Shown here: positions 3,493-52,572 of the stretch, one piece after another
Position numbering within the stretch: position 1 is the stretch's first letter
Layout: each line of letters starts with the position of its first letter
NCBI GenBank assembly: GCA_000146045.2
Contig: BK006938.2
Location: forward strand, 832,001 to 896,000
DNA from: TPA_inf: Saccharomyces
Lineage: Eukaryota
DNA: 64,000 nt
Direction: 5' to 3'
Program-made: the position numbers and the translations under genes
Notes under the pieces: generated by a model
The model's database searches: none
Seen by the model: the letters and a program-made list of their open reading frames with translations, nothing else
What the model was told of the DNA's origin: nothing

Positions 3493-4420
3493 CGTAGTGT
3501 AGGCTTCCCAAAATTTAGGATGTGATTAGTAATAGTGGTTGATTGCGAGCTCCGGGATGCGAGGGAGAGCGTGTATGTGTACTTCAAGTTCGCCAACTTC
3601 TCTCTTAAATAGAAAAAGAAAAGAAGAAAAAGGAAACGAAAAAAAAAAAAAGTAGGGAAAAGCTGAGTGATGAAGATCCGGGCTGCCAAGATTGGGTTTG
3701 AAACGTGTAGTCAGCTACAAACCAAAAATTAAAAGAACAATAGCAAAGAACCTTAGTAGGAAAACAATAAAATAATAGACACGACACCCGTAGAAAGATA
3801 GAACGGGACGAGGGGCCGGTTCAACAACTATCATACTTTCTTGTTCAACAACGCGATTAACCCAAATAATAAAAAAGCTACGAGACAAGAACAGACGAGG
3901 CAATACGAGCAACGAGCGCAACGAGAACGGTAAGCATGGCAACGGCGCGCACACCCACGCCCCGCAACCGCACACCTCAGCTCAAAGTAACCCACTTTAA
4001 CGTGACTGGACCTGAGCTGTCTGACTCGGTCGTTTGCAAATAGGTTAACGCCGTCGCTTCTCCCTTTCGTGTACCGTATATCTTTCTTTAATTGCATTCC
4101 CTTGTTGTGATTATCGTTTCCCATTGCAGTGAGCTTTCATTTTGGGGACCCTGGGAGTAGGCTGTTTTTCGATAGAGTGAGAGGTGTGGGTTCTGCGGCA
4201 GAATGGATACGGGCCGTGGATCACTGTTTACGGGAGTTTTGCTTTGGTGGCAAAATTTTCGCTCGGTGATGTGTTAGTAGTTGTTATTCTGGTAAGAAAC
4301 GAACGAAAGACGGAAAGGATTATGTATAACAGTGTATGTGTGCAGTGTGTGGAAAAGGTAAAGGTTAAGGGTGTGGAAGCAGTGAGAAGCAGAAGATTAT
4401 AATATAAGTAGAGTAGAAGC

Positions 4421-6061
4421 ATGTCATTGCAATTGTTGAATCCGAAGGCTGAATCGTTGAGAAGGGATGCGGCTTTGAAGGTTAACGTCACATCTGCTGA
4501 GGGCTTACAATCCGTCCTAGAGACCAACTTGGGCCCTAAGGGCACGCTAAAGATGCTTGTGGATGGTGCTGGTAACATCAAGCTGACCAAGGACGGTAAA
4601 GTGTTGCTGACCGAGATGCAGATCCAGTCGCCTACAGCGGTACTGATTGCTAGGGCAGCTGCCGCGCAGGATGAAATCACGGGCGATGGGACCACGACGG
4701 TTGTGTGTCTTGTGGGTGAATTGCTTAGACAAGCGCACCGTTTCATTCAAGAGGGCGTGCATCCGCGGATCATCACTGATGGGTTTGAGATTGCGCGGAA
4801 GGAGTCCATGAAATTTTTGGACGAATTCAAGATCAGTAAGACGAACCTTTCCAATGATAGAGAGTTCCTTCTGCAAGTGGCCCGGTCGTCGCTGCTAACC
4901 AAGGTGGACGCTGACTTGACGGAGGTCTTGACGCCCATTGTAACGGATGCGGTGCTAAGCGTGTACGACGCGCAGGCTGACAATTTGGATTTACACATGG
5001 TTGAGATCATGCAGATGCAGCACTTGTCTCCTAAAGATACCACTTTTATTAAGGGTTTGGTATTGGACCACGGTGGTAGGCATCCTGACATGCCCACCCG
5101 TGTGAAGAACGCGTATGTTTTGATTTTGAACGTATCTTTGGAATACGAGAAGACTGAAGTTAACTCTGGGTTCTTTTACAGTTCTGCGGACCAAAGGGAC
5201 AAGTTGGCCGCTAGTGAGAGGAAGTTTGTGGATGCCAAGTTGAAGAAGATCATCGACTTGAAAAACGAAGTTTGTGGCATGGATCCAGACAAGGGTTTTG
5301 TTATCATTAACCAAAAAGGCATTGACCCCATGTCTTTAGACGTGTTTGCCAAACACAACATCTTGGCTTTGAGAAGGGCCAAGAGACGTAACATGGAAAG
5401 ATTGCAATTGGTCACTGGCGGTGAAGCTCAGAACTCTGTGGAAGACTTGTCGCCTCAGATTCTTGGGTTTTCTGGCTTGGTCTACCAAGAAACCATAGGC
5501 GAGGAAAAATTCACATACGTTACAGAGAACACTGACCCCAAGTCTTGCACCATCTTAATCAAGGGCTCCACTCATTATGCCCTCGCTCAAACAAAGGATG
5601 CGGTGAGAGATGGTCTCAGAGCTGTGGCAAACGTTCTCAAGGACAAAAACATCATTCCAGGCGCTGGTGCGTTCTACATCGCCCTTTCGAGATACCTAAG
5701 ATCTGCCAACATGAACAAGTTGGGTGCCAAGGGTAAAACAAAGACAGGTATTGAGGCGTTCGCAGAAGCATTGCTGGTAATTCCAAAGACTTTGGTGAAG
5801 AACTCAGGATTCGACCCATTGGACGTGCTCGCAATGGTGGAGGACGAGTTGGATGACGCTCAGGATTCTGACGAAACGAGATATGTTGGTGTGGACTTGA
5901 ACATAGGTGATTCTTGCGACCCTACCATCGAGGGTATTTGGGATTCCTACCGCGTACTAAGAAATGCTATTACCGGTGCTACAGGTATTGCCAGCAACTT
6001 GTTATTATGCGATGAATTGTTAAGGGCAGGTAGATCCACTTTGAAAGAAACACCACAGTAA
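4421..6061 (+). CDS. CCT6: CCT6 (YDR188W), zeta subunit of the cytosolic chaperonin CCT/TRiC, 546 aa.
   Basis: The [45 protein letters not shown]... shows a group II chaperonin signature (GDGTTT). ATG at 4421. Confidence 0.95.
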
Positions 6062-6391
6062 TAAAAAATAATAATAATAATAATAATAACAAGAACACGA
6101 ATACTAGTAGTAATAGTAGTCAGATACAAAAATTCTATGTAACATATTTTTTCCAGTCACTATCATCATCATCATATTTTGTATATATACATTTATTATA
6201 TAAAATATCATACCAATTTTTGCCAAAGAACACCGTTTCCCTCTTCGCGTTGACCACAGTAATTGCAGAAACGACAAAAAAAAAACAAAAAAAAGAAGCA
6301 CCATTCTAACTCAGCCTTTAATAACCTGACATGATAACTTATAATAGTCATTGCCAGTTGCTAAGTATCTTTGACCAAAAATCACAACATC

Positions 6392-8392
6392 ATGGCTGTG
6401 GAGGAAATTGCGTCCCGCAAGGACATTAGTTTAAGAGATATGCAAATCTCTGCCATATTAAAAATGCTGTTTTTAAATAAGGATTTGAACAACAACGACA
6501 ACATCACCACCATCACAGACGATATTTTTAACCAGCAGGAGATCATCTGGAAGGTGTTGATACTGGACATCAAGAGCACTGCTACCATATCTTCTGTTCT
6601 CAGAGTCAATGACCTGCTGAAAGCTGGTATCACCGTTCATTCCTTGATTAAACAAGACAGATCTCCCTTGCCAGATGTCCCTGCCATATATTTCGTCTCC
6701 CCCACAAAGGAAAACATTGACATTATAGTCAATGACTTGAAAAGCGACAAGTATTCTGAATTTTACATCAACTTTACCTCATCTCTGCCCAGAAACCTCC
6801 TGGAAGATTTGGCTCAACAAGTCTCCATCACGGGTAAATCTGATAAAATCAAACAAGTTTACGACCAATACCTGGACTTCATTGTAACTGAACCGGAACT
6901 GTTCTCACTAGAAATTTCAAACGCATACTTGACATTGAATGACCCGAAAACCACAGAAGAGGAAATCACGGGCTTATGCGCCAACATCGCGGACGGTTTA
7001 TTCAACACTGTCTTAACGATCAATTCTATCCCCATTATAAGAGCAGCTAAGGGTGGGCCTGCTGAGATCATCGCTGAGAAACTGGGTACAAAATTACGTG
7101 ATTTCGTCATCAATACCAATTCCTCCTCCACTTCCACTTTGCAGGGAAATGATTCTCTGGAAAGAGGAGTGTTGATTATTTTGGATAGAAACATAGATTT
7201 TGCCTCCATGTTTTCACATTCGTGGATTTATCAGTGCATGGTCTTTGATATTTTCAAATTATCAAGAAACACCGTTACTATTCCACTTGAAAGTAAGGAA
7301 AACGGAACTGACAATACCACCGCAAAACCATTAGCCACGAAAAAATATGATATAGAGCCAAACGATTTTTTTTGGATGGAAAACTCTCATTTGCCATTCC
7401 CAGAAGCTGCAGAGAACGTTGAAGCGGCATTGAATACGTACAAGGAGGAAGCCGCAGAAATTACTAGGAAAACTGGTGTTACCAACATATCAGATTTGGA
7501 CCCAAACTCGAATAATGATACGGTTCAAATTCAGGAAGTCGTAAAGAAACTGCCAGAGTTAACAGCTAAGAAAAATACTATTGATACACATATGAATATT
7601 TTTGCTGCATTGTTGTCACAATTGGAAAGTAAAAGTCTTGATACTTTCTTTGAAGTTGAACAAGACCCTGGAAGCACCAAAACAAGATCTAGGTTTTTGG
7701 ATATACTAAAAGATGGTAAGACAAACAATCTTGAGGACAAACTGAGATCGTTTATTGTTCTTTACTTGACATCAACGACAGGCTTACCAAAGGATTTTGT
7801 CCAAAATGTGGAAAACTATTTCAAGGAAAACGATTACGATATCAATGCTTTAAAATATGTTTATAAGCTAAGAGAGTTCATGCAATTATCAAATATGTCG
7901 TTACAAAATAAATCTTTGGAAGATGGATCCGATTCCGCTTTCAAACCAAGCAACTTAACATTATCCGGTATCTATGGCTTAACTGAAGGCAAATTACAAG
8001 GAGGTGTAGGAAGTTTAATATCAGGTATTAAGAAGTTACTGCCTGAAAAGAAAACCATCCCGATAACAAATGTTGTTGATGCGATAATGGACCCTTTAAA
8101 CAGCTCTCAAAAAAATTTGGAGACTACTGACAGTTACCTATACATCGACCCAAAAATTACAAGGGGTTCCCATACCAGAAAGCCAAAAAGACAATCTTAT
8201 AATAAGTCACTAGTGTTTGTAGTTGGTGGCGGTAACTACCTAGAATATCAAAACCTCCAAGAATGGGCACATTCCCAGTTGCATAATCCCAAAAAAGTCA
8301 TGTATGGTAGCACAGCCATTACCACACCAGCTGAATTCTTAAATGAGATTTCTCGCCTTGGCGCAAGTAATAGCAGCAACAACGATGCATAA
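6392..8392 (+). CDS. SLY1: SLY1 (YDR189W), Sec1/Munc18-family SNARE-binding protein for ER-Golgi transport, 666 aa.
   Basis: The ORF track starts at a TTG at 6371. The first in-frame ATG is at 6392 (MAVEEIASRKDISLRDMQISAILKMLF...) and gives the known 666-aa product. Confidence 0.93.
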   Translation: MAVEEIASRKDISLRDMQISAILKMLFLNKDLNNNDNITTITDDIFNQQEIIWKVLILDIKSTATISSVLRVNDLLKAGITVHSLIKQDRSPLPDVPAIYFVSPTKENIDIIVNDLKSDKYSEFYINFTSSLPRNLLEDLAQQVSITGKSDKIKQVYDQYLDFIVTEPELFSLEISNAYLTLNDPKTTEEEITGLCANIADGLFNTVLTINSIPIIRAAKGGPAEIIAEKLGTKLRDFVINTNSSSTSTLQGNDSLERGVLIILDRNIDFASMFSHSWIYQCMVFDIFKLSRNTVTIPLESKENGTDNTTAKPLATKKYDIEPNDFFWMENSHLPFPEAAENVEAALNTYKEEAAEITRKTGVTNISDLDPNSNNDTVQIQEVVKKLPELTAKKNTIDTHMNIFAALLSQLESKSLDTFFEVEQDPGSTKTRSRFLDILKDGKTNNLEDKLRSFIVLYLTSTTGLPKDFVQNVENYFKENDYDINALKYVYKLREFMQLSNMSLQNKSLEDGSDSAFKPSNLTLSGIYGLTEGKLQGGVGSLISGIKKLLPEKKTIPITNVVDAIMDPLNSSQKNLETTDSYLYIDPKITRGSHTRKPKRQSYNKSLVFVVGGGNYLEYQNLQEWAHSQLHNPKKVMYGSTAITTPAEFLNEISRLGASNSSNNDA

Positions 8393-8422
8393 TTGGCATC
8401 TAGCCCCAATGACGATACACTA

Positions 8423-8452
8423 ATATATATATATATATATATATCTATATAT
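8423..8452. repeat. (TA)n dinucleotide microsatellite, about 11 units with interruptions, in the SLY1 3' flank.
   Basis: atatatatatatatatatatatctatatatc. Confidence 0.9.
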
Positions 8453-8603
8453 CTGCAAGAAATAAGCGTGTGTAGTAAGTAAAAGGAAAAATAGAAATTT
8501 TTGCTCAAAAATAACGGTCCCATTTTGATACAATGTTTTTGGTTTAGTGATTTGCGTAATATTTATTTTTATTTATGAAATGTGCTTTAGGCTTTCTTCA
8601 CTG

Positions 8604-10001
<1,398 letters not shown>

Positions 10002-38563: not shown

Positions 38564-39073
38564 GTAGGGCACAGGTAAATAACCTATCGTCTATGTACTC
38601 AGTCTAATCTACTTTGATTTAATTTAATTCAAGTTATATAAATCTATTCTTTTCCCTTTAATTTTAATATTTTAATTTCAATCCTTTTCTTATTTTCTAT
38701 TTTTGCTTTTTTTTTTTCTTTTTTCCATATTCTCAGGCCACGTCAGGCTTGCATAAGCCACGCTAGCTAATAATTCAGCGAGACCCTATTCCAAACCTAA
38801 TTGTTCGGAACCATGCCATATCTCTTCCGCAGTGTGTGGCTAAGCGGCTTTAAGAGGATACGAAATGTCAAAAAACGAGAAAATTCGATTATATCTGTAC
38901 GAACTTTTCTTTGCGCTTACTGCCTGTTTACTTTGCTTTGCCTTCTACTGTTTTTTTTTGCTCGAGGCCGATGGTGAACTGCAACGTTATATAAACTAAA
39001 GTGCCAGAATAAAAATAAAGAAAGGCAAAGGGAGACTATCCGTCTTCGAAACAAGTCAAAAGAGCGAAAACTA

Positions 39074-39301
39074 ATGAGCCAACAACAAGGTTACTACCAA
39101 CAAGGACCCCCACAGCAAGGTTATTATCAACAAGGTCCACCACAACAAGGTTATTATCAACAAGGTCCACCGCAACAGGGTTATCCTCAGCAGCAACCAG
39201 TCTATGTCCAACAAGGTCAACCAAAGGAGGAAAGCTGCTTGGACAGTTGTTTAAAATGTTTGTGTTGTTGTTTCTTATTAGAATTGGTATGCGATAACTG
39301 A
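39074..39301 (+). CDS. YDR210W: YDR210W, a small CYSTM-family protein of 75 aa with three [10 protein letters not shown] repeats and a Cys-rich C-terminal tail-anchor.
   Basis: [76 protein letters not shown] 30-bp unit is tandemly repeated three times at about 39086-39175. Confidence 0.8.
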
Positions 39302-39450
39302 TTCGTTTGTTCAAGAAGTGGTCAATATAAAAAACGAAATCACATAGCCTTTCATCTATGCTGCGAAAGACTGTATAATTACTTTTAAGCAAAAATGTAT
39401 ATAATATGATGGGATCGTTACGTTGGAACAAGAATTGACCATCGTTCATC

Positions 39451-39748
39451 TGTTGTTGAAATAAAATTTGAAGTTATTCGTCGTACTAGTATCCTATCAC
39501 ATGCGGTGTAAGAAATCACATTGTATGAGAAGCAATTATCTAATTTAATGGACGCTGAAGTTCAAGAATTGGTAATGTGACAGGATAATTAATTAACAGC
39601 ATATAAAATAAAAGAATAATATTTTTATTATATAAAAATATCGATCACTCTTGTGGATTTCTAAATCCTCGAAGAGAACTTTTAATGCATTCTATATGCC
39701 TAATAATAAAGTCGCTATCGAAAATATAATATCTATGCTTATCTATAT
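39451..39748 (+). repeat. A divergent, degenerate solo Ty LTR (delta-like), about 300 bp, in plus orientation.
   Basis: It starts with tgttgttgaaataaaa (compare the canonical delta start TGTTGGAATAGAAATCAAC). It has internal blocks alignable to delta (…taatttaatggacgctgaagttcaagaattggtaatgtgacaggataa… and ggatttctaaatcctcgaagagaactt) but carries many substitutions and indels. Confidence 0.55.
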
Positions 39749-39820
39749 TGAGAAATGGATGAAATTTGAGATAATTGTTGGGATTCCATTGTTGACAAAG
39801 GCTATGATATTAGGTGTAAA
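39749..39820 (-). repeat. Left, 3'-terminal fragment of an older solo delta LTR in minus orientation, which the Ty2 insertion split.
   Basis: Read on the plus strand it is tgagaaatggatgaaatttgagataattgttgggattccattgttgacaaaggctatgatattagg..., the reverse complement of the canonical delta 3' end (…CCTAATATTATAGCCTTTATCAACAATGGAATCCCAACAATTATCTCA…TTCTCA). It is flanked on the left by tatat (39744-39748), and the same pentamer recurs at 46045-46049. Confidence 0.75.
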
Positions 39821-40152
39821 TGTTGGAATAAAAATCAACTATCATCTACTAACTAGTATTTACGTTACTAGTATATTATCATATACGGTGTTAGAAGATG
39901 ACGCAAATGATGAGAAATAGTCATCTAAATTAGTGGAAGCTGAAACGCAAGGATTGATAATGTAATAGGATCAATGAATATTAACATATAAAACGATGAT
40001 AATAATATTTATAGAATTGTGTAGAATTGCAGATTCCCTTTTATGGATTCCTAAATCCTTGAGGAGAACTTCTAGTATATCTACATACCTAATATTATAG
40101 CCTTAATCACAATGGAATCCCAACAATTACATCAAAATCCACATTCCCAACA
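39821..40152 (+). repeat. Ty2 5' LTR (delta), 332 bp.
   Basis: It begins tgttggaataaaaatcaactatcatctactaactag. The gag ATG at 40112 lies inside the LTR, 41 nt before its end. The LTR is followed by the PBS tggtagcgcc. Confidence 0.88.
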
Positions 40153-41428
40153 TGGTAGCGCCTATGCTTCGGTTACTTCTAAGGAAGTCCCATCAAATCA
40201 AGATCCGTTAGCCGTTTCAGCTTCCAATTTACCGGAATTTGATAGAGATTCCACTAAGGTTAATTCTCAAGAAGAGACAACACCTGGGACATCAGCTGTT
40301 CCAGAGAACCATCATCATGTCTCTCCTCAACCTGCTTCAGTACCACCTCCACAGAATGGACAGTACCAACAGCACGGCATGATGACCCCAAACAAAGCTA
40401 TGGCCTCTAACTGGGCACATTACCAACAACCATCTATGATGACGTGTTCACATTATCAAACGTCACCTGCGTATTATCAACCGGACCCACACTATCCGCT
40501 GCCACAGTATATCCCACCGCTGAGTACTTCCTCACCTGATCCAATCGATTCACAGGATCAACACTCTGAAGTACCTCAAGCTAAGACAAAGGTGAGAAAT
40601 AATGTCTTACCACCACACACTTTAACATCAGAAGAAAACTTTTCTACATGGGTTAAATTTTACATCAGATTTTTGAAGAACTCTAATCTCGGTGACATTA
40701 TTCCAAATGACCAGGGTGAAATCAAAAGACAAATGACTTATGAAGAACATGCGTATATATACAATACCTTCCAAGCATTTGCCCCATTTCATTTATTGCC
40801 AACATGGGTAAAACAAATTTTAGAAATTAATTATTCTGACATCCTTACAGTCCTTTGTAAAAGTGTGTCCAAAATGCAAACTAACAATCAAGAATTAAAA
40901 GATTGGATAGCTCTTGCCAACCTTGAGTACAACGGAAGTACATCTGCTGATACATTTGAAATTACAGTCAGCACGATCATTCAAAGGCTAAAAGAAAACA
41001 ATATCAATGTTAGCGACAGATTGGCCTGTCAACTAATACTTAAAGGTCTATCCGGTGATTTCAAATACCTACGTAATCAATATCGTACCAAAACGAACAT
41101 GAAACTTTCCCAATTATTCGCTGAAATTCAATTAATATATGACGAAAATAAAATCATGAATCTAAATAAACCGTCCCAATACAAACAACACAGCGAATAC
41201 AAAAATGTTTCTCGCACATCTCCAAACACGACTAACACGAAGGTTACAACTCGTAATTATCATAGAACAAATAGTTCAAAACCAAGAGCAGCAAAAGCTC
41301 ACAATATTGCTACATCCAGTAAATTCTCAAGGGTGAACAGTGATCACATTAATGAATCAACCGTTTCATCACAATACTTAAGCGATGACAACGAACTTAG
41401 TCTTAGGCCAGCAACAGAAAGAATCTAA
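40112..41428 (+). CDS. Ty2 TYA (Gag), 438 aa (recalled as YDR210W-A).
   Basis: This ORF is in the track, and it ends with [15 protein letters not shown]. Confidence 0.9.
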
Positions 41429-44400
41429 GCCAACACGCACAATAGACTCGAATGACGAACTACCTGATCACCTTCTTATTGATTCAGGAGCTTCGCAAAC
41501 GCTTGTCAGATCAGCCCATTATTTACACCATGCAACACCCAATTCTGAAATAAACATAGTCGATGCTCAAAAACAAGACATTCCTATAAATGCCATTGGT
41601 AATCTTCACTTCAACTTTCAGAACGGCACCAAAACATCAATAAAAGCACTACACACACCAAACATAGCCTATGATCTATTAAGTTTGAGTGAGCTGGCTA
41701 ACCAAAATATTACTGCCTGCTTTACCAGAAACACTTTAGAAAGATCGGATGGTACAGTACTAGCTCCCATAGTCAAACATGGAGACTTTTACTGGTTATC
41801 TAAAAAATACCTAATTCCTTCGCACATTTCAAAGCTAACAATAAACAACGTCAACAAAAGCAAAAGCGTAAATAAATATCCATATCCGTTAATACATCGA
41901 ATGCTTGGACATGCTAACTTCCGAAGTATTCAGAAGTCTCTTAAGAAGAATGCAGTTACATATTTGAAAGAATCGGATATTGAATGGTCTAACGCTAGCA
42001 CATATCAATGTCCTGACTGTCTAATCGGCAAAAGCACGAAACATAGGCATGTCAAAGGATCACGACTAAAGTACCAAGAATCATATGAGCCTTTTCAGTA
42101 CTTGCATACCGATATATTTGGTCCTGTACATCACTTACCGAAAAGTGCACCTTCTTACTTTATATCGTTTACAGATGAGAAAACCAGATTCCAATGGGTG
42201 TACCCATTACACGACCGTCGTGAAGAATCTATCCTCAATGTTTTTACATCGATATTAGCATTTATTAAGAACCAATTCAATGCTCGCGTTCTAGTTATCC
42301 AGATGGATCGTGGCTCCGAGTACACTAACAAAACTCTTCATAAGTTCTTTACGAACAGAGGTATTACTGCATGCTATACAACCACGGCAGATTCTAGAGC
42401 ACACGGTGTCGCTGAACGATTAAATCGTACTTTATTAAACGATTGTCGCACACTGCTTCATTGCAGTGGTCTACCAAATCATCTATGGTTCTCAGCAGTC
42501 GAATTTTCTACTATAATCAGAAATTCATTAGTCTCACCAAAAAACGATAAATCTGCCAGACAACATGCAGGTTTAGCTGGACTGGACATTACTACTATAC
42601 TACCTTTCGGTCAACCGGTTATAGTTAACAACCATAATCCCGACTCGAAAATACATCCTCGTGGCATTCCAGGTTACGCCTTACATCCGTCACGAAACTC
42701 TTATGGCTATATTATCTATCTTCCATCCTTAAAAAAGACAGTAGATACTACCAATTACGTTATATTACAAAACAATCAAACGAAATTGGACCAGTTCGAC
42801 TACGATACACTCACTTTTGATGATGATCTCAATCGTTTAACAGCCCATAACCAATCTTTTATTGAACAAAATGAAACGGAGCAGTCATATGATCAAAATA
42901 CAGAATCTGATCATGACTATCAATCGGAGATTGAAATAAACTCTGATCCTCTAGTGAACGATTTCTCGTCCCAATCATTGAACCCTTTACAATTAGACAA
43001 GGAACCAGTCCAAAAGGTACGTGCACCAAAAGAAGTTGATGCCGACATATCTGAATACAATATTCTTCCATCTACTATACGATCTCGTACACCCCATATC
43101 ATTAATAAAGAGAGTACCGAAATGGGTGGTACCATTGAATCAGATACTACTTCACCTAGACACTCGTCTACCTTCACTGCACGAAACCAAAAGCGACCTG
43201 GTAGTCCCAATGATATGATTGATTTGACCTCACAGGATAGAGTTAATTATGGACTTGAAAACATCAAAACTACACGTTTGGGTGGTACGGAGGAACCATA
43301 TATTCAACGAAATAGTGATACAAATATCAAATACAGGACTACAAATAGTACGCCCTCAATAGATGACCGTTCGTCCAACAGTGAATCCACTACTCCCATC
43401 ATCTCCATAGAAACAAAGGCTGTATGTGATAATACACCCTCCATTGATACGGATCCGCCAGAATATCGATCTTCTGACCATGCGACTCCTAATATAATGC
43501 CTGACAAATCCTCAAAAAATGTTACGGCTGATTCTATTCTTGACGACCTCCCACTTCCTGACTTAACCCATAAATCTCCTACGGACACTTCTGATGTTGC
43601 AAAAGATATTCCACACATACACTCTCGTCAGACTAATTCCAGTTTGGGTGGTATGGATGATTCTAATGTTCTGACTACTACCAAAAGTAAGAAAAGATCA
43701 TTAGAAGATAATGAAACTGAAATTGAGGTATCCCGAGACACATGGAATAATAAGAATATGAGAAGTCTGGAACCACCAAGATCGAAGAAACGCATAAATT
43801 TAATTGCAGCAATAAAAGGAGTGAAATCGATCAAACCAGTTCGAACGACCTTAAGATATGATGAAGCAATTACATATAATAAAGACAACAAAGAAAAAGA
43901 CAGATATGTTGAAGCTTATCATAAAGAAATTAGCCAACTATTGAAAATGAACACTTGGGATACAAACAAATATTATGATAGAAATGACATAGATCCTAAA
44001 AAAGTAATAAACTCAATGTTTATATTTAACAAGAAACGTGATGGTACACACAAAGCTAGATTTGTTGCAAGAGGCGACATTCAACACCCCGATACATATG
44101 ATTCTGATATGCAATCCAATACCGTACATCACTATGCACTGATGACGTCATTGTCAATCGCATTAGACAATGACTATTATATCACACAGCTGGACATATC
44201 CTCTGCTTACTTATATGCTGATATCAAAGAAGAATTATACATAAGACCTCCACCACATTTAGGTTTGAATGATAAGTTACTACGTTTGAGAAAATCACTC
44301 TATGGTTTGAAACAAAGTGGTGCAAACTGGTATGAAACCATTAAATCATATTTAATAAATTGTTGCGACATGCAAGAAGTTCGCGGATGGTCATGCGTAT

Positions 44401-45425
44401 TTAAGAATAGTCAAGTAACAATTTGCTTATTCGTTGACGACATGATTTTATTTAGCAAAGACTTAAATGCAAATAAGAAAATCATAACAACACTCAAGAA
44501 ACAATACGATACAAAGATAATAAATCTGGGTGAAGGTGATAACGAAATTCAGTACGACATACTTGGATTAGAGATCAAATATCAAAGAAGCAAGTACATG
44601 AAATTAGGTATGGAAAAATCCTTGACAGAAAAATTACCCAAACTAAACGTACCTTTGAACCCAAAAGGAAAGAAACTTAGAGCTCCAGGTCAACCAGGTC
44701 ATTATATAGACCAGGATGAACTAGAAATAGATGAAGATGAATACAAAGAGAAAGTGCATGAAATGCAAAAGTTGATTGGTCTAGCTTCATATGTTGGATA
44801 TAAATTTAGATTTGACTTACTATACTACATCAACACACTTGCTCAACATATACTATTCCCCTCTAGGCAAGTTTTAGACATGACATATGAGTTAATACAA
44901 TTCATGTGGGACACTAGAGATAAACAATTAATATGGCACAAAAACAAACCTACCAAGCCAGATAATAAACTAGTCGCAATAAGCGATGCTTCATATGGTA
45001 ACCAACCATATTACAAGTCACAAATTGGTAACATTTTCCTACTCAACGGAAAAGTGATTGGAGGAAAGTCGACAAAGGCTTCGTTAACATGCACTTCAAC
45101 TACAGAAGCAGAAATACACGCAGTCAGTGAAGCTATACCGCTATTGAATAACCTCAGTCACCTTGTGCAAGAACTTAACAAGAAACCAATTATTAAAGGC
45201 TTACTTACTGATAGTAGATCAACGATCAGTATAATTAAGTCTACAAATGAAGAGAAATTTAGAAACAGATTTTTTGGCACAAAGGCAATGAGACTTAGAG
45301 ATGAAGTATCAGGTAATAATTTATACGTATACTACATCGAGACCAAGAAGAACATTGCTGATGTGATGACAAAACCTCTTCCGATAAAAACATTTAAACT
45401 ATTAACTAACAAATGGATTCATTAG
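40112..45425 (+). CDS. Ty2 TYA-TYB (Gag-Pol) polyprotein made by a programmed +1 ribosomal frameshift, 1770 aa (recalled as YDR210W-B), with protease, integrase, reverse transcriptase and RNase H domains.
   Basis: The frameshift heptamer CTTAGGC lies at 41402-41408, 18 nt upstream of the gag stop. The +1 frame stays open to the TAG at 45423-45425. The pol product contains DSGAS (protease), an integrase HHCC plus D,D35E region, and the RT motif FVDDM. Confidence 0.88.
41402..41408 (+). other. Ty +1 programmed frameshift site, CUU-AGG-C.
   Basis: An exact match to the canonical Ty1/Ty2 slippery heptamer lies in the gag/pol overlap. Confidence 0.85.
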
Positions 45426-45447
45426 ATCTATTACATTATGGGTGGTA

Positions 45448-45779
45448 TGTTGGAATAAAAATCAACTATCATCTACTAACTAGTATTTACGTTACTAGTA
45501 TATTATCATATACGGTGTTAGAAGATGACGCAAATGATGAGAAATAGTCATCTAAATTAGTGGAAGCTGAAACGCAAGGATTGATAATGTAATAGGATCA
45601 ATGAATATTAACATATAAAACGATGATAATAATATTTATAGAATTGTGTAGAATTGCAGATTCCCTTTTATGGATTCCTAAATCCTTGAGGAGAACTTCT
45701 AGTATATCTACATACCTAATATTATAGCCTTAATCACAATGGAATCCCAACAATTACATCAAAATCCACATTCTCTACA
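45448..45779 (+). repeat. Ty2 3' LTR (delta).
   Basis: tgttggaataaaaatcaactatc…atccacattctctaca. It is preceded by the PPT gggtggta. Confidence 0.88.
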
Positions 45780-46044
45780 GTAAAGAATATACTGGAAGTT
45801 CTCCTCGATGATATAGGAATCCTCGAAATGGAATCTATATTTCTACATACTAATATTACGATTGTTCCTCATTCCGTTTTTATATGTTTCATTATCCTAT
45901 TACATTATCAATCCTTGCACTTCAGCTTCCTCTAACTTCGATGACAGCTTCTCATAACTTATGTCATCATCTAACACCGTATATGATAATATATTGATAC
46001 TATAACTATTAGTTGATAGACGATAGTGGATTTTTATTCCAACA
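45780..46044 (-). repeat. Right, 5' fragment of the same older solo delta (minus orientation) that the Ty2 insertion split.
   Basis: gtaaa|gaatatactggaagttctcctcgatgatataggaatcctcgaaatggaatctatatttctacatactaatattacg…ttattccaaca is the reverse complement of the delta 5' two-thirds. It ends in ccaaca at 46039-46044 and is followed by tatat. Joined with 39749-39820 it reconstitutes one delta of about 330 bp with a TATAT target-site duplication. Confidence 0.75.
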
Positions 46045-46100
46045 TATATTCACTCGTTTCTCCGAATGAAAATAAATAACATCTATTGACTATTCCTTTT

Positions 46101-46302
46101 TGTTGATATATCATCATATGTGGTGAAAGAAGATGACAAAAAAATTGAGAACAAGAAATGCCAAGGTGGATAAAATAATATGATAATAAGCAACAATATA
46201 TAAAATGAAAGAGGAAATAATATCATCATTACTTAGAAAATACGACTCATCTCTGTGTCCCCTAGGAAAAGTTCAAGTATATCCTAAACCTGATACTATG
46301 GC
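46101..46302 (+). repeat. Left fragment of a second divergent solo LTR (plus orientation), which the Ty1 insertion split. Its right fragment is at 52221-52276.
   Basis: It starts tgttgatatatcatcatatgtggtgaaagaagatgac…, with delta-like blocks. The segment after the Ty1 (atggcctctttaacactaatatcccgacaattttcccaaaattcaaagaattctca) aligns to the canonical delta 3' end (ATAGCCTTTATCAACAATGGAATCCCAACAATTATCTCAACATTCACCCATTTCTCA). Confidence 0.55.
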
Positions 46303-46636
46303 TGAGAAATATGTGGGTAATTAGATAATTGTTGGGATTCCATTGTTGATAAAGGCTATAATATTAGGTATACAGAATATACTAGAAGTTCTCCTCGAGG
46401 ATTTAGGAATCCATAAAAGGGAATCTGCAATTCTACACAATTCTATAAATATTATTATCATCGTTTTATATGTTAATATTCATTGATCCTATTACATTAT
46501 CAATCCTTGCGTTTCAGCTTCCACTAATTTAGATGACTATTTCTCATCATTTGCGTCATCTTCTAACACCGTATATGATAATATACTAGTAACGTAAATA
46601 CTAGTTAGTAGATGATAGTTGATTTTTATTCCAACA
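46303..46636 (-). repeat. Ty1 3' LTR (delta), on the minus strand.
   Basis: The sequence is highly similar to the Ty2 LTRs in reverse orientation. Confidence 0.88.
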
Positions 46637-46658
46637 TACCACCCATAATGTAATAGAT

Positions 46659-49600
46659 CTAATGAATCCATTTGTTTGTTAATAGTTTAAATGTTTTTAT
46701 CGGAAGAGGTTTTGTCATCACATCAGCAATGTTCTTCTTGGTCTCGATGTAGTATACGTATAAATTATTACCTGATACTTCATCTCTAAGTCTCATTGCC
46801 TTTGTGCCAAAAAATCTGTTTCTAAATTTCTCTTCATTTGTAGACTTAATTATACTGATCGTTGATCTACTATCAGTAAGTAAGCCTTTAATAATTGGTT
46901 TCTTGTTAAGTTCTTGCACAAGGTGACTGAGGTTATTCAATAGCGGAATAGCTTCACTGACTGCGTGTATTTCTGCTTCTGTAGTTGAAGTGCATGTTAA
47001 CGAAGCCTTTGTCGACTTTCCTCCAATCACTTTTCCGTTGAGTAGGAAAATGTTACCAATTTGTGACTTGTAATATGGTTGGTTACCATATGAAGCATCA
47101 CTTATTGCGACTAGTTTATTATCTGGCTTGGTAGGTTTGTTTTTGTGCCATATTAATTGTTTATCTCTAGTGTCCCACATGAATTGTATTAACTCATATG
47201 TCATGTCTAAAACTTGCCTAGAGGGGAATAGTATATGTTGAGCAAGTGTGTTGATGTAGTATAGTAAGTCAAATCTAAATTTATATCCAACATATGAAGC
47301 TAGACCAATCAACTTTTGCATTTCATGCACTTTCTCTTTGTATTCATCTTCATCTATTTCTAGTTCATCCTGGTCTATATAATGACCTGGTTGACCTGGA
47401 GCTCTAAGTTTCTTTCCTTTTGGGTTCAAAGGTACGTTTAGTTTGGGTAATTTTTCTGTCAAGGATTTTTCCATACCTAATTTCATGTATTTACCTCTTT
47501 GATATTTGATTTCTAAGCCAAGTATGTCGTACTGAATTTCGTTATCACTTTCACCCAGATTTATTATCTTTGTATCGTATTGTTTCTTGAGTGTTGTTAT
47601 GATTTTCTTATTTGCATTTAAGTCTTTGCTGAACAATATCATATCATCAACGAATAAGCAAATTGTTACTTGACTATTCTTAAATACGCATGACCATCCA
47701 CGAACTTCTTCCATACCACACTGTTTTATCAGGTATGATTTGATAGTTTCGTACCAGTTCGCTCCACTTTGTTTCAATCCATAAAGTGATTTCTTCAAAC
47801 GTATCAACTTATCATTCATTCCTAAATGTGGTGGAGGTCTTATGTATAATTCTTCTTTGATGTCTGCATACAAATATGCCGAAGATATGTCTAATTGTGT
47901 AATATAGTAGTTATTGTCTAATGCAAGTGACAGGGATGTCATCAACGCATAATGATGTACAGTGTTGGATTGCATACCTGTATCGTACGTATCAGGATGC
48001 TGAATGTCACCTCTTGCAACAAATCTAGCTTTATGAGTTCCGTCACGTTTCTTGTTGAAGATAAACATTGAGTTTATTACTCTTTTAGGGTCTATTTCTT
48101 TTCTGTCATAATATTTGTCAGTGTCCCAAGTATTCATTTTCAATAGTTGGTTGACTTCTTTGTGGTATGCTTCGATATATTTTTCCTTTTCTTTAATATC
48201 TTTATTATAGGTGATTGCCTCATCGTATCTTAAAGTTGTCCGTATTGGTTTGATTGATTTTACTGCTTTTACAGCTGCAATCAGGTGAATTCGTTTCTTC
48301 GATCTCGGAGGTTCTAAACTACGCATATTCTTAGTATTCCATGTGTCTCGTGATACCTTAATTTCAGTTTCATTATCTTCTAATGATCTTTTCTTACTGT
48401 TGATAGTAGTATAGGCATTAGAGTCACCAATACCACCCAAACTGGAATTAGTTTGATGAGAATTTATCGGTGGGAGTTCTTTAAATGGGTCAGGGAATTC
48501 GGTAGGAGATTCTGGAGGTAGATCAGGGAGTGGGAGATCAGCGATGATAGATTCCTCGGTATTCTGTTCAGAAACAGTAGTTGGCGTTTTGATAGGAACA
48601 ATATTGTGCGATGAATTATTTTCCGGTGGAGAAGCATCGATTGAAGGTGAACGGTGTATAATCCTTTTCTCAGTCTCTTGGTCACTTATCTGCGGAACAG
48701 TTTTGTTGTTGGTACCACCCGTACTGGATATTGGTACGTTTGTATGATTAGTCTCATTTTCACTGTACGAGTCTGAGTGTCTGAAATCTTTAGATTTACT
48801 GGCGTACGACGACTCATGTGTGTTAGATTGGGACATGGGAGCAAGTAAAGGAACATCTAATCTATGCATACCACCCGAATCGGTACTCTCGATATCGGAA
48901 ATTTGGGGGGTGCTAGATCTCTTCTTAGATGGAAGAATATTAGATTCAGATATGTTGGGGTCAACTTCTCTGGGTGCGCGAATATTGGTTTTAGAAACAC
49001 GTTTCGAATCTTCAGTATGAGTTGACGGGGGTGTGGAATCGGTTGGACTCACAGCTTTTGAAAGGACATTTCTCGGTTGCTCAGGATATAGTTCAATATC
49101 AGATTGAAAGTCATGGTCTGATTCTATGTTAAGATCATTGGATTGTTGGATCTCATTTGACGCAATGAACGATTGATATGAAGCAGTTAAACGGTTTAAG
49201 TCTTCATCGAAAGTGAGTGCGTCGTAATTGAATTGATCTAATCTGGAGTCCTTGCCCTGAAGAATAACATAGTTAGTTGTATCTACTGTCTTCTTTAAGG
49301 ATGGAAGATAGATGATATATCCATAAGAGTTTCGAGACGGATGTAGAGCGTAGCCTGGGATGCCACGAGGATGTATTTTGGAGTTAGGGTTGTGATCATT
49401 GACGATAACAGGTTGACCGAAAGGTAACAAAGTACTGATATCAAGTCCTGCCAAGCCAGCATGTTGTCTTGCAGATTTTTTGCTTTTAGGTGAAGCTAGT
49501 GAATTTCTCACAATAGTAGAAAATTCGATTGCAGAGAACCATAAATGGTTCGGTAAACCACTACATTGCAGTTGAGTACGGCAGTCATCTAATAAGGTAC

Positions 49601-51927
49601 GGTTTAGCCGTTCAGCGACTCCATGTGCTCGGGAATCCGCTGTGGTTGTATAGCATGGAGTTATACCATTTTTTTCAAGGAATTTATGGAGAGTTCTGTT
49701 AGTATACTCAGAACCACGGTCCATTTGTATAACCAAGACACTGGCCTGAAACTGGTTTTTAATAAAAGCTAGTATCGTAGTAAAAACATCGAGGATAGAG
49801 TCCTCGCGACGGTCGTGTAATGGATAAACCCAACGGAATTTTGTTGTCTCATCAGTAAATGAGATGAAATAGGATGGTGCACTATTTGGTAGGTTGTGAA
49901 CTGGACCAAATATGTCAGTATGTAGGTATTGAAAGGGTTCGTATGAATTTTGGTATTTTAGTCGTGAACCTTTGATATGTCTGTGTTTGGTGCTTTTGCC
50001 GATTAAACAATCAGGACATTGATAGTCAATAGCACTAGACCAGTCGACATCTGATTCGTTAAAATACGTGATGGTGTTATTTTTAAGTGAGTATCGAATT
50101 GTCTGTGCATTGGCATGCGCAAGCATTCGATGAATGAAAGGATAAGGATATTTGCGTGTACTTTCACTTGTATGGACATTATTGATGGTGGGTACGGAGA
50201 TATTTGATGGAAGCAAGTACTTTTTAGATACCCAGTAAAAGTCTCCATATTTTACGATAGGTGCAAGTACAGTGCCGTCAGATCGTTCTAAGACGTTTTT
50301 GGTAAAGCATGCTGTGATATCTACTGCAGCCAATTCATTCAAACTGAGTAAGTCATAGGCTATGTTAGGAGTGTGCAATACCTTTATTGATGTTTTGGTG
50401 TTGTCCTGGAAGTGAAATTGTAGGTCACCAATAGCGTTAATTGGTATATTTCTTTTTTGAGCATCAACTACGTTTATGTCAGGATTAGATGATGCTGAGT
50501 GTATGTGATGAGCAGATCTTATAAGGGTTCGTGATGCTCCTGAATCGAGAAGGAGGTGTCCAGGGAGTTCATCATCAGAATGATTAGTATGATTTACTGT
50601 AGATTCAGTAAGTTTCTGGCCTAAGATGAAGGTCGTGCTTATTGTTCAATTGAATCGGTTCAGTAGTTGATTTACTGATGGAATCGTTGTCCGTGCTGGG
50701 AGAGTTAATAGATGTGGATACATTGTGAGCCCTGGCTGTTTTCGATTTCGAATTATTTGTTTTTTGAGGATTCCGAGCTATAACTTTGGGTTTGGTTGTA
50801 TTCGTATAGCTGCGAGAATCATTCTTCTCATCACTCCGATTTCTCCTGTAATTAGGTTTGCTGTTTCTCGATCCCTGTTGTTCTTCATAAATAGCATGGA
50901 TATCTAAGAACAGTTCAGCGACTGTCATATTTAGATGTCGATGACGTGTGTAGCGTAAAAATTTATATTCGCCAGATAGACCTCTCATAATTAATTGGCA
51001 TGCGACCTTGTTATTGATATGAATGCCATTATTGTTCAGTCTGTCGATAATGTTTGTGACTTTTGTTTCAAATGCATCTGCAGGTGTACTGCCATTATAT
51101 TGCAAATTTGCCAGGGTCACAATGTCGTTTGCCTCTTGGGTATCAGATTGCATTTTTTCAATACTTTTGGAAAGAATTTTCATGATATCCGTATAATCAA
51201 CGGATAGGATGTCTTTGACCCAGGTAGGTAGGAATTGAGAGGGAGCAAATATTTGAAAAGTGTTATACAAGAAGGTGAGTTCATCATCAGTGATCTGACG
51301 TACGGGTTTTCCGTTTACTGTCGGAATAATACCACCGAGATTCGAGTTTTGTAAAAATTTGATGTATGTTTTAACCCAATTTGGAAAGTCATTAGGTGAG
51401 GTTAACATTGGTGGTGGTCTGACATATTTTTTAGTGGATGTCATATCAGAGTCCGCTGAGGATGAATCAGTAAATGTATTACCTGACTCAGGTGATGGAG
51501 TGCTCAGAGGCGTTCCAACTGATGATGGATACTGCGGAAACTGTGATTGTGGCCCAGGTGGAAAGTACATAGGCGACATTTGATAAGGTGTATACGGAAT
51601 CATAGATGGGTGTCCGTAAAATGACCAACCAGATGGATTGGCTTGGTTTTGGGTCATCATGCACTGCTGTGGGTACGGCCCATTCTGTGGAGGTGGTACT
51701 GAAGCAGGTTGAGGAGAGGCATGATGGGGGTTCTCTGGAACAGCTGATGAAGCAGGTGTTGTTGTCTGTTGAGAGTTAGCCTTAGTGGAAGCCTTATCAT
51801 ATTCTTGAATTTTGGAAGCTGAAACGTCTAACGGATCTTGATTTGTGTGGACTTCCTTAGAAGTAACCGAAGCACAGGCGCTACCATGAGATATATGTGG
51901 GTAATTAGATAATTGTTGGGATTCCAT
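46659..51927 (-). CDS. Ty1 TYA-TYB (Gag-Pol) polyprotein made by a +1 frameshift, 1755 aa, on the minus strand.
   Basis: The reverse complement of the frameshift heptamer, gcctaag, lies at 50619-50625. The pol frame stays open to the stop at 46659-46661. The protein ends …[12 protein letters not shown], identical to the Ty2 copy. Confidence 0.88.
50605..51927 (-). CDS. Ty1 TYA (Gag), 440 aa.
   Basis: This ORF is in the track, and it ends with …[13 protein letters not shown]. Confidence 0.9.
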
Positions 51928-52220
51928 TGTTGATAAAGGCTATAATATTAGGTATACAGAATATACTAGAAGTTCTCCTCGAGGATTTAGGAATCCATAA
52001 AAGGGAATCTGCAATTCTACACAATTCTATAAATATTATTATCATCGTTTTATATGTTAATATTCATTGATCCTATTACATTATCAATCCTTGCGTTTCA
52101 GCTTCCACTAATTTAGATGACTATTTCTCATCATTTGCGTCATCTTCTAACACCGTATATGATAATATACTAGTAACGTAAATACTAGTTAGTAGATGAT
52201 AGTTGATTTTTATTCCAACA
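51887..52220 (-). repeat. Ty1 5' LTR (delta), on the minus strand.
   Basis: The gag ATG at 51927 lies inside the LTR. The LTR ends, in its own orientation, next to the PBS. Confidence 0.88.
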
Positions 52221-52276
52221 ATGGCCTCTTTAACACTAATATCCCGACAATTTTCCCAAAATTCAAAGAATTCTCA
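52221..52276 (+). repeat. Right, 3' fragment of the divergent solo LTR that the Ty1 insertion split. It ends ttctca, 85 bp upstream of the tRNA gene.
   Basis: See the entry for 46101-46302. Confidence 0.55.
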
Positions 52277-52360
52277 GAAAGAGCTATTTTTTTTTTTAAT
52301 AAAATTATTAGTACTAATTCCAGTATAAATAACAATGTTATTTACGTCTCTTTCGAAAAT

Positions 52361-52493
52361 GCTCGTGTAGCTCAGTGGTTAGAGCTTCGTGCTTATAGCA
52401 ACATTCGGTTTCCGAAGTTTCTGTGCCAAAGACCTTTCAAACAGGCCTTTAAAAGCAACGCGACCGTCGTGGGTTCAAACCCCACCTCGAGCA
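52361..52493 (+). tRNA. tRNA-Ile (anticodon UAU) gene with a 60-nt intron (recalled as tI(UAU)D).
   Basis: The 5' exon gctcgtgtagctcagtggttagagcttcgtgcttata is at 52361-52397, the intron at 52398-52457, and the 3' exon acgcgaccgtcgtgggttcaaaccccacctcgagca at 52458-52493. The spliced product folds as a 73-nt cloverleaf with anticodon loop cTTATAa. It has an A box (TAGCTCAGTGGTTAGAG) and a B box (GGTTCAAACCC). The only yeast tRNA with a 60-nt intron is Ile-UAU. Confidence 0.93.
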
Positions 52494-52509: not shown

Positions 52510-52572
52510 CACACGCGTTTGCAACATGCCCGTATTACATGAGCTTATTTGACTTTAGATGGTTTTCAGTTC

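Follow-up and report, generated by a model that had tools for sequence, protein, structure and literature searches.

The window analysed here, a stretch of 64,000 nucleotides (nt) of Saccharomyces cerevisiae chromosome IV (chrIV; contig BK006938.2, positions 832,001 to 896,000), contains two full-length retrotransposons, a Ty2 on the forward strand and a Ty1 on the reverse strand, which face each other tail to tail across 523 bp and together form a large inverted repeat. Upstream of the pair lies an open reading frame (ORF) of 779 amino acids with a PIP5K domain, which we take to be MSS4, and the downstream ORFs match the yeast eIF2B-epsilon (GCD6) and TCP1 chains of the PDB over their full length. 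The locus is the chrIV region at ~872–884 kb that carries YDRWTy2-2 and YDRCTy1-2 and has been published as the recombination hotspot HS3 (St Charles and Petes 2013, PMC3616911). The lengths of Ty2, gap and Ty1 (5959, 523 and 5918 bp) coincide with an existing annotation in which YDRWTy2-2 occupies chrIV 871819–877777 and YDRCTy1-2 occupies 878301–884218 (Carr et al. 2012, File S2); adding 831,998 to a window coordinate gives the sacCer2 position on chrIV. HS3 and the pair in the window share locus, element types, orientation, lengths, the 523-bp gap and the flanking genes. The finding of a recombinogenic Ty pair at this position is correct but not new, since both the pair and its hotspot role are already in the literature. 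What is added here is the exact extent and identity of the inverted arms, the hybrid origin of their near-perfect core, and a delta-derived, partly palindromic spacer. Taken jointly, the anatomy of the locus, the independent origin of its two elements and its identity as HS3 are proposed with high confidence.

Anatomy of the two elements and of the inverted repeat

Both elements possess direct long terminal repeats (LTRs) of the TG...CA form and are flanked by a 5-bp target-site duplication, and an allele lacking both elements (described below) confirmed the two duplications. The sequence TGGTAGCGCC, the tRNA-Met primer binding site of Ty2 and Ty1 alike, lies beside the 5′ LTR, and a polypurine tract precedes the 3′ LTR, each at the expected position in both elements. 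The gag and pol frames overlap at a CTTAGGC +1 frameshift site in the two copies, with open frames of 444 and 1328 amino acids in Ty1 and of 450 and 1347 amino acids in Ty2. Pfam searches assigned the two Gag proteins to TYA (E = 1e-204 and 1e-234) and placed the integrase domain rve (residues 147–335) ahead of RVT_2 (residues 765–1046), which is the copia order. The coordinates of these and the other features of the locus are listed in Table 1. The two LTRs of Ty2 differ at two of their last six nt (40147–40152 and 45774–45779; CCCAACA versus CTCTACA), which is odd for LTRs copied off one template. In PMC2996329, this Ty1 appears only as having unannotated LTRs. No further Ty or delta sequence was found in the window outside 39.7–52.3 kb.

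Table 1. Features of the Ty2/Ty1 locus, in window coordinates
Feature	Position	Strand	Description or basis
Ty2 YDRWTy2-2	39821–45779	+	5959 bp, full-length
Ty2 LTRs	39821–40152 and 45448–45779	+	100% identical over 327 nt
Ty2 gag	40112–41428	+	pol frame open to 45425
Ty2 target-site duplication GTAAA	39816–39820, second copy 45780–45784		sequence; 5-bp block overlap in empty allele
Ty1 YDRCTy1-2	46303–52220	-	5918 bp, full-length, Ty1/2 hybrid type
Ty1 LTRs	3′ 46303–46636, 5′ 51887–52220	-	99.7% identical
Ty1 gag	50605–51927	-	pol open down to 46659
Ty1 target-site duplication ATGGC	46298–46302, second copy 52221–52225		sequence; overlapping blocks in empty allele
Left arm	43623–45756	+	Ty2 pol 3′ part and most of 3′ LTR; blastn against reverse complement
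Right arm	46326–48461	-	Ty1 3′ LTR and pol 3′ part; alignment shared with left arm
Left-arm near-perfect core	44595–45706	+	partner 46378–47489
Right-arm near-perfect core	46378–47489	-	partner 44595–45706
Spacer, 523 bp	45780–46302		ancestral DNA, two degenerate solo deltas head-to-head; 30% GC
Old solo delta, larger piece	45785–46044	-	U5 end at 39769–39820, severed by Ty2 insertion
Second, more degenerate solo delta	46064–46302	+	74% identical to LTR positions 6–282; z = 13.7 against shuffles
Intron-containing tRNA gene, 133 nt	52361–52493	+	Rfam RF00005, 49.3 bits, E = 1.6e-07

A large inverted repeat had been predicted from the sequence, and self-alignment of the region against its reverse complement confirmed it. 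The blastn self-comparison of 39–53 kb returned a single dominant inverted match of 2137 columns with 93.2% identity and four gap openings (E = 0), and an ungapped repeat finder recovered the same inverted repeat as 2106 nt at 93%. This repeat is far beyond chance. The identity of the arms is uneven. In a global alignment of both elements, it is ~80–90% at 43.6–44.38 kb and then jumps to 98.9% over 44385–45706 (15 mismatches in 1322 nt); the core reaches 99.6% (4 mismatches in 1112 nt), with a longest perfect run of 389 nt. The U5 end of the LTR (the last ~70 nt) has diverged between the arms and contains small indels. The loop measures 569 nt between the aligned arms and ~670 nt between the near-perfect cores. 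As a single strand, 45300–46790 was predicted to fold into one long hairpin with a free energy of −564.5 kcal/mol, a value that reflects thermodynamics only.

These measurements bear on several details of the original prediction. Its description of the repeat as near-perfect holds for the inner 1.1–1.3 kb and not for the whole 2.1 kb, and the arms that it placed at 44.3–45.8 and 46.3–47.7 kb correspond to this inner part. The spacer, put at about 523 bp, is exactly 523 bp between the elements. The claim that the C-terminal Pol regions differ at only a couple of residues over more than 350 amino acids was essentially correct, as the two proteins show 2 differences over the 348 amino acids ending in LTNKWIH.

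The core is nearly perfect because the Ty1 copy is a Ty1/2 hybrid, and not through a general likeness between Ty1 and Ty2. Across their first 260 nt, both LTRs of Ty1 match that of Ty2 at 100% identity, and they diverge thereafter; the last ~830 nt of Ty1 pol are ~99.6% identical to Ty2, and the sequence just upstream is 80–90% identical. Over the 5′ two-thirds of the elements, identity is 43–88% per 100 nt. The 3′ end of TYB and ~240 nt of LTR U3 are accordingly of Ty2 type and the rest is Ty1, with the neighbouring copy as the only Ty2 reference used. Published Ty1/2 hybrids owe a terminal segment of TYB and ~240 nt of U3 to Ty2, presumably through template switches within particles into which both RNAs had been packaged, and they account for 18 of the 32 Ty1 copies in S288c (PMC4022208; PMC3511429). 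With the hybrids of Jordan and McDonald (1998), as described in these two papers, the copy in the window shares the Ty2-derived TYB end and ~240–260 nt of U3, as well as R-U5, gag and most of pol of Ty1 type, and no difference was found. Judged by its sequence, it corresponds to the “long” hybrid type. We found no published list that names this Ty1 copy as a hybrid. A different Ty1 occupying the same site in another assembly (L003, see below) is only 86–93% identical to Ty2 over the hybrid stretch. Treating the pattern of similarity as that expected for Ty2 versus Ty1, as the original prediction did, was thus slightly inaccurate, since the inner 1.1 kb owes its near-identity to the hybrid nature of this copy.

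Independent insertion upstream of a tRNA gene

Other yeast assemblies were fetched through the flanking proteins. One of them (L013, GCA_029990725.1) carries a natural allele without either element, in which flank, spacer and flank are contiguous. Its sequence aligns in three blocks, namely the left flank to 39820, 45780–46302 at 100% identity, and 52218 onward, which overlap at the duplicated pentamers. Given this empty allele and the separate duplications, the two elements therefore represent two independent simple insertions into ancestral DNA. The structure and orientation seen in the window were also present in L011 (100% identity), L001 (99.99%), and L004 and L014 (~99.8%). An inverted spacer was found in none of the few assemblies read, of which some are probably closely related to the reference strain. 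Published strain data agree that each element is polymorphic separately from the other: Carr et al. (2012, File S2) recorded Ty2 in 2 strains out of 26 and Ty1 in 4 out of 30, neither element is present in Y55 and only Ty2 in YPS128 (PMC3684551), and YJM789 lacks the pair (PMC3616911).

An inverted repeat could also originate from an inverted segmental duplication (palindrome formation) or from an assembly artefact, and nothing beyond the symmetry of the locus speaks for either. The 5′ two-thirds of the elements are strongly different, each element is bordered by a separate 5-bp target-site duplication, both elements are missing from a natural allele, the strain frequencies of the elements differ, and other chromosome-scale assemblies share the structure. 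The empty allele and the separate duplications already refute such an origin, the probability of which is close to nil.

Two further assemblies (L002 and L012) were rejected as natural empty alleles, because a loxPsym site exactly replaces 39821–52493, a segment comprising both Ty elements, the spacer and the tRNA gene. In L002 (GCA_031758555.1), the flanks of which are ~98% identical to the window, this loxPsym site lies at 9734–9767, and three more occur at 2887, 17771 and 19240 within 22 kb. We take both assemblies to represent an engineered synthetic chromosome IV of the Sc2.0 type, from which this unstable locus was deliberately removed. An apparent translocation in L005 (Logan DRR531726, at ~9844) was also set aside. 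It joins the GCD6 promoter to unrelated genes with arrestin, zinc-finger, MFS and Spt4 domains, with the junction at window positions 52548–52570, and is probably an assembly chimera, as the junction is a run of 22 T residues at which five other short-read contigs end.

The assembly L003 (GCA_030035895.1) contains a different Ty1 (3562–9509) at the same insertion site, with ATGGC and the right flank in common with the window. The 3′ third of this element is only 88–93% identical to the window Ty1, and its two LTRs differ from each other; these sequence features suggest gene conversion or replacement at the Ty1 site. This assembly is uninformative with regard to Ty2, as 3561 N precede its Ty1.

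The DNA into which the elements inserted already contained older LTR remnants. When Ty2 and one copy of its duplication were removed, the pieces of the larger solo delta joined into a single alignment of 320 columns covering LTR positions 1–314 at 82% identity. The second delta probably continues at 52227–52276, beyond Ty1; in the joined pre-insertion sequence, its local score rose from 46.5 to 61 and its match reached LTR position 334. Between the two deltas lie ~19 bp, and an oppositely oriented Ty interrupts each of them close to the U5 end. Both delta fragments of the spacer are annotated as st45- and st44+ in File S2 of Carr et al. (2012). A short additional delta fragment (39645–39705, forward strand; LTR positions 215–275, 82% identity) lies upstream of the split delta, which suggests that this stretch near the tRNA gene received insertions repeatedly in the distant past.

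The tRNA gene downstream of the pair was detected through Rfam; the result of ARAGORN, which reported no tRNA in the window, was accordingly regarded as a false negative. From its sequence, the anticodon appears to be TAT, that is, the tRNA-Ile UAU type. In the empty allele, the insertion points of Ty1 and Ty2 are 140 bp and ~660 bp from this gene, respectively. The region upstream of genes transcribed by RNA polymerase III is the usual target zone of Ty1 and Ty2.

Recombination at HS3 and its possible mechanism

St Charles and Petes (2013) mapped 139 crossovers that had arisen spontaneously in the right chrIV arm and called the peak at this pair HS3 and that at a similar pair at 981 kb HS4, and both hotspots were initiated in G1 and specific to the W303a homolog carrying the pairs (PMC3616911). 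A review agrees that HS3 is this pair (PMC6267110). HS4 (YDRWTy2-3/YDRCTy1-3, chrIV 981–993 kb) likewise consists of a Watson Ty2 and a Crick Ty1 arranged tail to tail, and it resembles HS3 in being spontaneous, G1-initiated and specific to the carrying homolog. It is the stronger hotspot, and the deletion, spacer expansion, exo1 and mlh1 experiments were made at HS4 only. There, the activity requires both elements as well as a short spacer: it was abolished by deletion of Ty2 or by widening of the spacer by ~2 kb, and it was kept when one promoter LTR was deleted (PMC3616911). HS4 also needs Exo1, and neither mlh1 nor ultraviolet (UV) irradiation had an effect (PMC5531827). The long, highly identical inverted arms of an HS4-type hotspot are present in the window (93.2% over 2.1 kb and 99.6% in the 1.1-kb core). 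Nothing biological distinguishes the window pair from the published HS3, although the spacer in the paper is “about 100 bp” versus 523 bp in the window. The spacer of HS4 is 25–66 bp long (28 bp by annotation).

The pair has also been recovered as a rearrangement site. One sector contained a ~100-kb deletion between the HS3 and HS4 pairs (PMC3616911), a tel1 rearrangement isolate carried a duplication between the two chrIV pairs (PMC3974649), 64 evolved mutants shared identical ChrIV-1n breakpoints (bioRxiv 2021.07.07.451547), and one end of a UV-induced deletion lay at this pair (PMC4349867). Thus, the predicted recombinogenic inverted repeat is the published hotspot HS3, and its proposed role as a rearrangement substrate is documented by ~100-kb deletions and duplications involving the 981-kb pair. 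The pair therefore matters for yeast genome stability, being a recurrent breakpoint of ~100-kb copy-number changes in evolution and rearrangement experiments.

The original prediction had further likened the locus to FS2 on chromosome III, a fragile site that breaks when replication is compromised. In such a site, slowed replication would leave a long single-stranded lagging-strand template on which the arms could form a hairpin. The architecture is of the same kind, since FS2, like the pair in the window, consists of two natural inverted ~6-kb Ty elements around a spacer of a few hundred bp, and the fold predicted for the window is strongly favourable thermodynamically. According to PMC3778018, which cites Lemoine et al. 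(2005), FS2 is a Ty1/Ty1 pair with a spacer of ~280 bp that is induced by low Pol alpha; a hairpin model has been proposed for it, and a wider spacer stabilises the site. The analogy breaks down in the response to replication stress. Low levels of Pol alpha or Pol delta strongly induce FS2, with events of the S/G2 type, whereas the chrIV pairs are not induced: in the sectoring assays summarised in PMC6267110, neither HS3 nor HS4 was a hotspot under low Pol alpha or Pol delta (GAL-POL1, GAL-POL3), a contrast with FS2 that the review calls “puzzling”. In addition, the conversion patterns of both chrIV hotspots indicate lesions in G1 and not in S phase (PMC6267110; PMC3616911), and the loop of at least 569 nt is about twice that of FS2. 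On these published data, breakage of the FS2 type at this locus is very unlikely; the pair is known as a recombinogenic inverted repeat and is not a demonstrated replication-stress fragile site.

In the explanation that we favour, Ty2 and Ty1 inserted independently and in opposite orientations upstream of the tRNA gene, each inside an old solo delta, so that the Ty2-derived 3′ end of Ty1 and the neighbouring Ty2 constitute the 2.1-kb inverted repeat around the 523-bp spacer. At this repeat, a nick would be widened into a single-stranded gap, a step that depends on Exo1 at HS4 and is extended to HS3 by analogy. The exposed strand would fold back through the Ty arms, a nuclease would cut the folded structure, and the break would be repaired from the homolog. 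Formation of the hairpin needs at least 0.6–0.7 kb of exposed single strand in addition to the stem, and a gap widened by Exo1 in G1, which has been proposed for HS4, could by analogy expose enough DNA at HS3. For the hairpin step at HS3 itself, we consider the chances to be about even, judging from the behaviour of HS4.

Several points weigh against this mechanism. The mechanism of HS3 was introduced by the authors with the words “we assume”, the dissection by deletion and spacer expansion concerned HS4 only (PMC3616911), and the statistical support applies to a 200-kb bin holding HS3 and HS4 and not to HS3 alone. The loop of 569–670 nt is far longer than that of HS4 (25–66 bp) or FS2 (~280 bp), and enlargement of the spacer to ~2 kb abolishes the activity of both of these sites (PMC3616911; PMC3778018). 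In short quasi-palindromes, fragility drops steeply with spacer length (PMC8053094). With respect to the short spacer of HS4-type hotspots, the 523-bp spacer and its 569–670-nt loop fall between the active (tens of bp) and inactive (~2 kb) values. Lastly, the published spacer of “about 100 bp” does not match the sequence. A length of 523 bp is found in the window, in the reference annotation and in three assemblies, and the published value fits no distance in the window, the nearest being the ~79 nt that separate the Ty2 3′ LTR from the inverted delta. This discrepancy with the literature bears on any hairpin model of HS3.

The HS3 signal might also be independent of the inverted-repeat structure and reflect other properties of this 12.4-kb hemizygous Ty/tRNA cluster, such as Ty transcription, pausing at the tRNA gene, Ty cDNA or ectopic Ty–Ty interactions, or a scoring bias for tracts that span a large heterology. 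In the study that mapped HS3, Ty elements, LTRs and tRNA genes are over-represented in conversion tracts in general (PMC3616911), 523 bp is a long spacer for an inverted-repeat effect, and the restriction of the deletion test to HS4 leaves room for such causes. However, removal of an element or widening of the spacer abolished the activity at HS4 and removal of a promoter LTR did not, HS3 and HS4 have their G1 timing and homolog specificity in common, and the tRNA positions are alike on both homologs. On balance, we consider it unlikely that the HS3 signal is independent of the inverted repeat.

With regard to the length of the loop, the spacer may not be inert. Alone, it was predicted to fold end to end into an imperfect hairpin (z = −2.8; 2 of 100 shuffles folded as well), and this modelled fold might shorten the effective loop. 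Moreover, the Ty2 3′ LTR and the inverted old delta (45446–45707 and 46046–45787) are 79% identical, with a loop of ~79 nt between them. With its head-to-head deltas, the locus is laid out as a nested, imperfect palindrome centred near 46054, in which pairing could start at the small central loop or at the Ty2 3′ LTR/delta pair and could then extend into the long Ty arms. We regard this role of the spacer as a speculative and rather improbable refinement of the fold-back mechanism. If true, it would explain the activity of HS3 despite a nominal loop of more than 500 nt, and it might explain the spacer of “about 100 bp” in the literature.

Short reading frames beside Ty2

Just upstream of Ty2, the forward strand contains a 75-amino-acid ORF (39074–39301) that is rich in Q, G and Y and contains tandem 10-residue units; a 30-nt direct repeat (39079–39184, 88% identity) lies within it. 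An antisense ORF of 137 amino acids (39036–39449, reverse strand) overlaps this frame, and both are called as genes in other assemblies.

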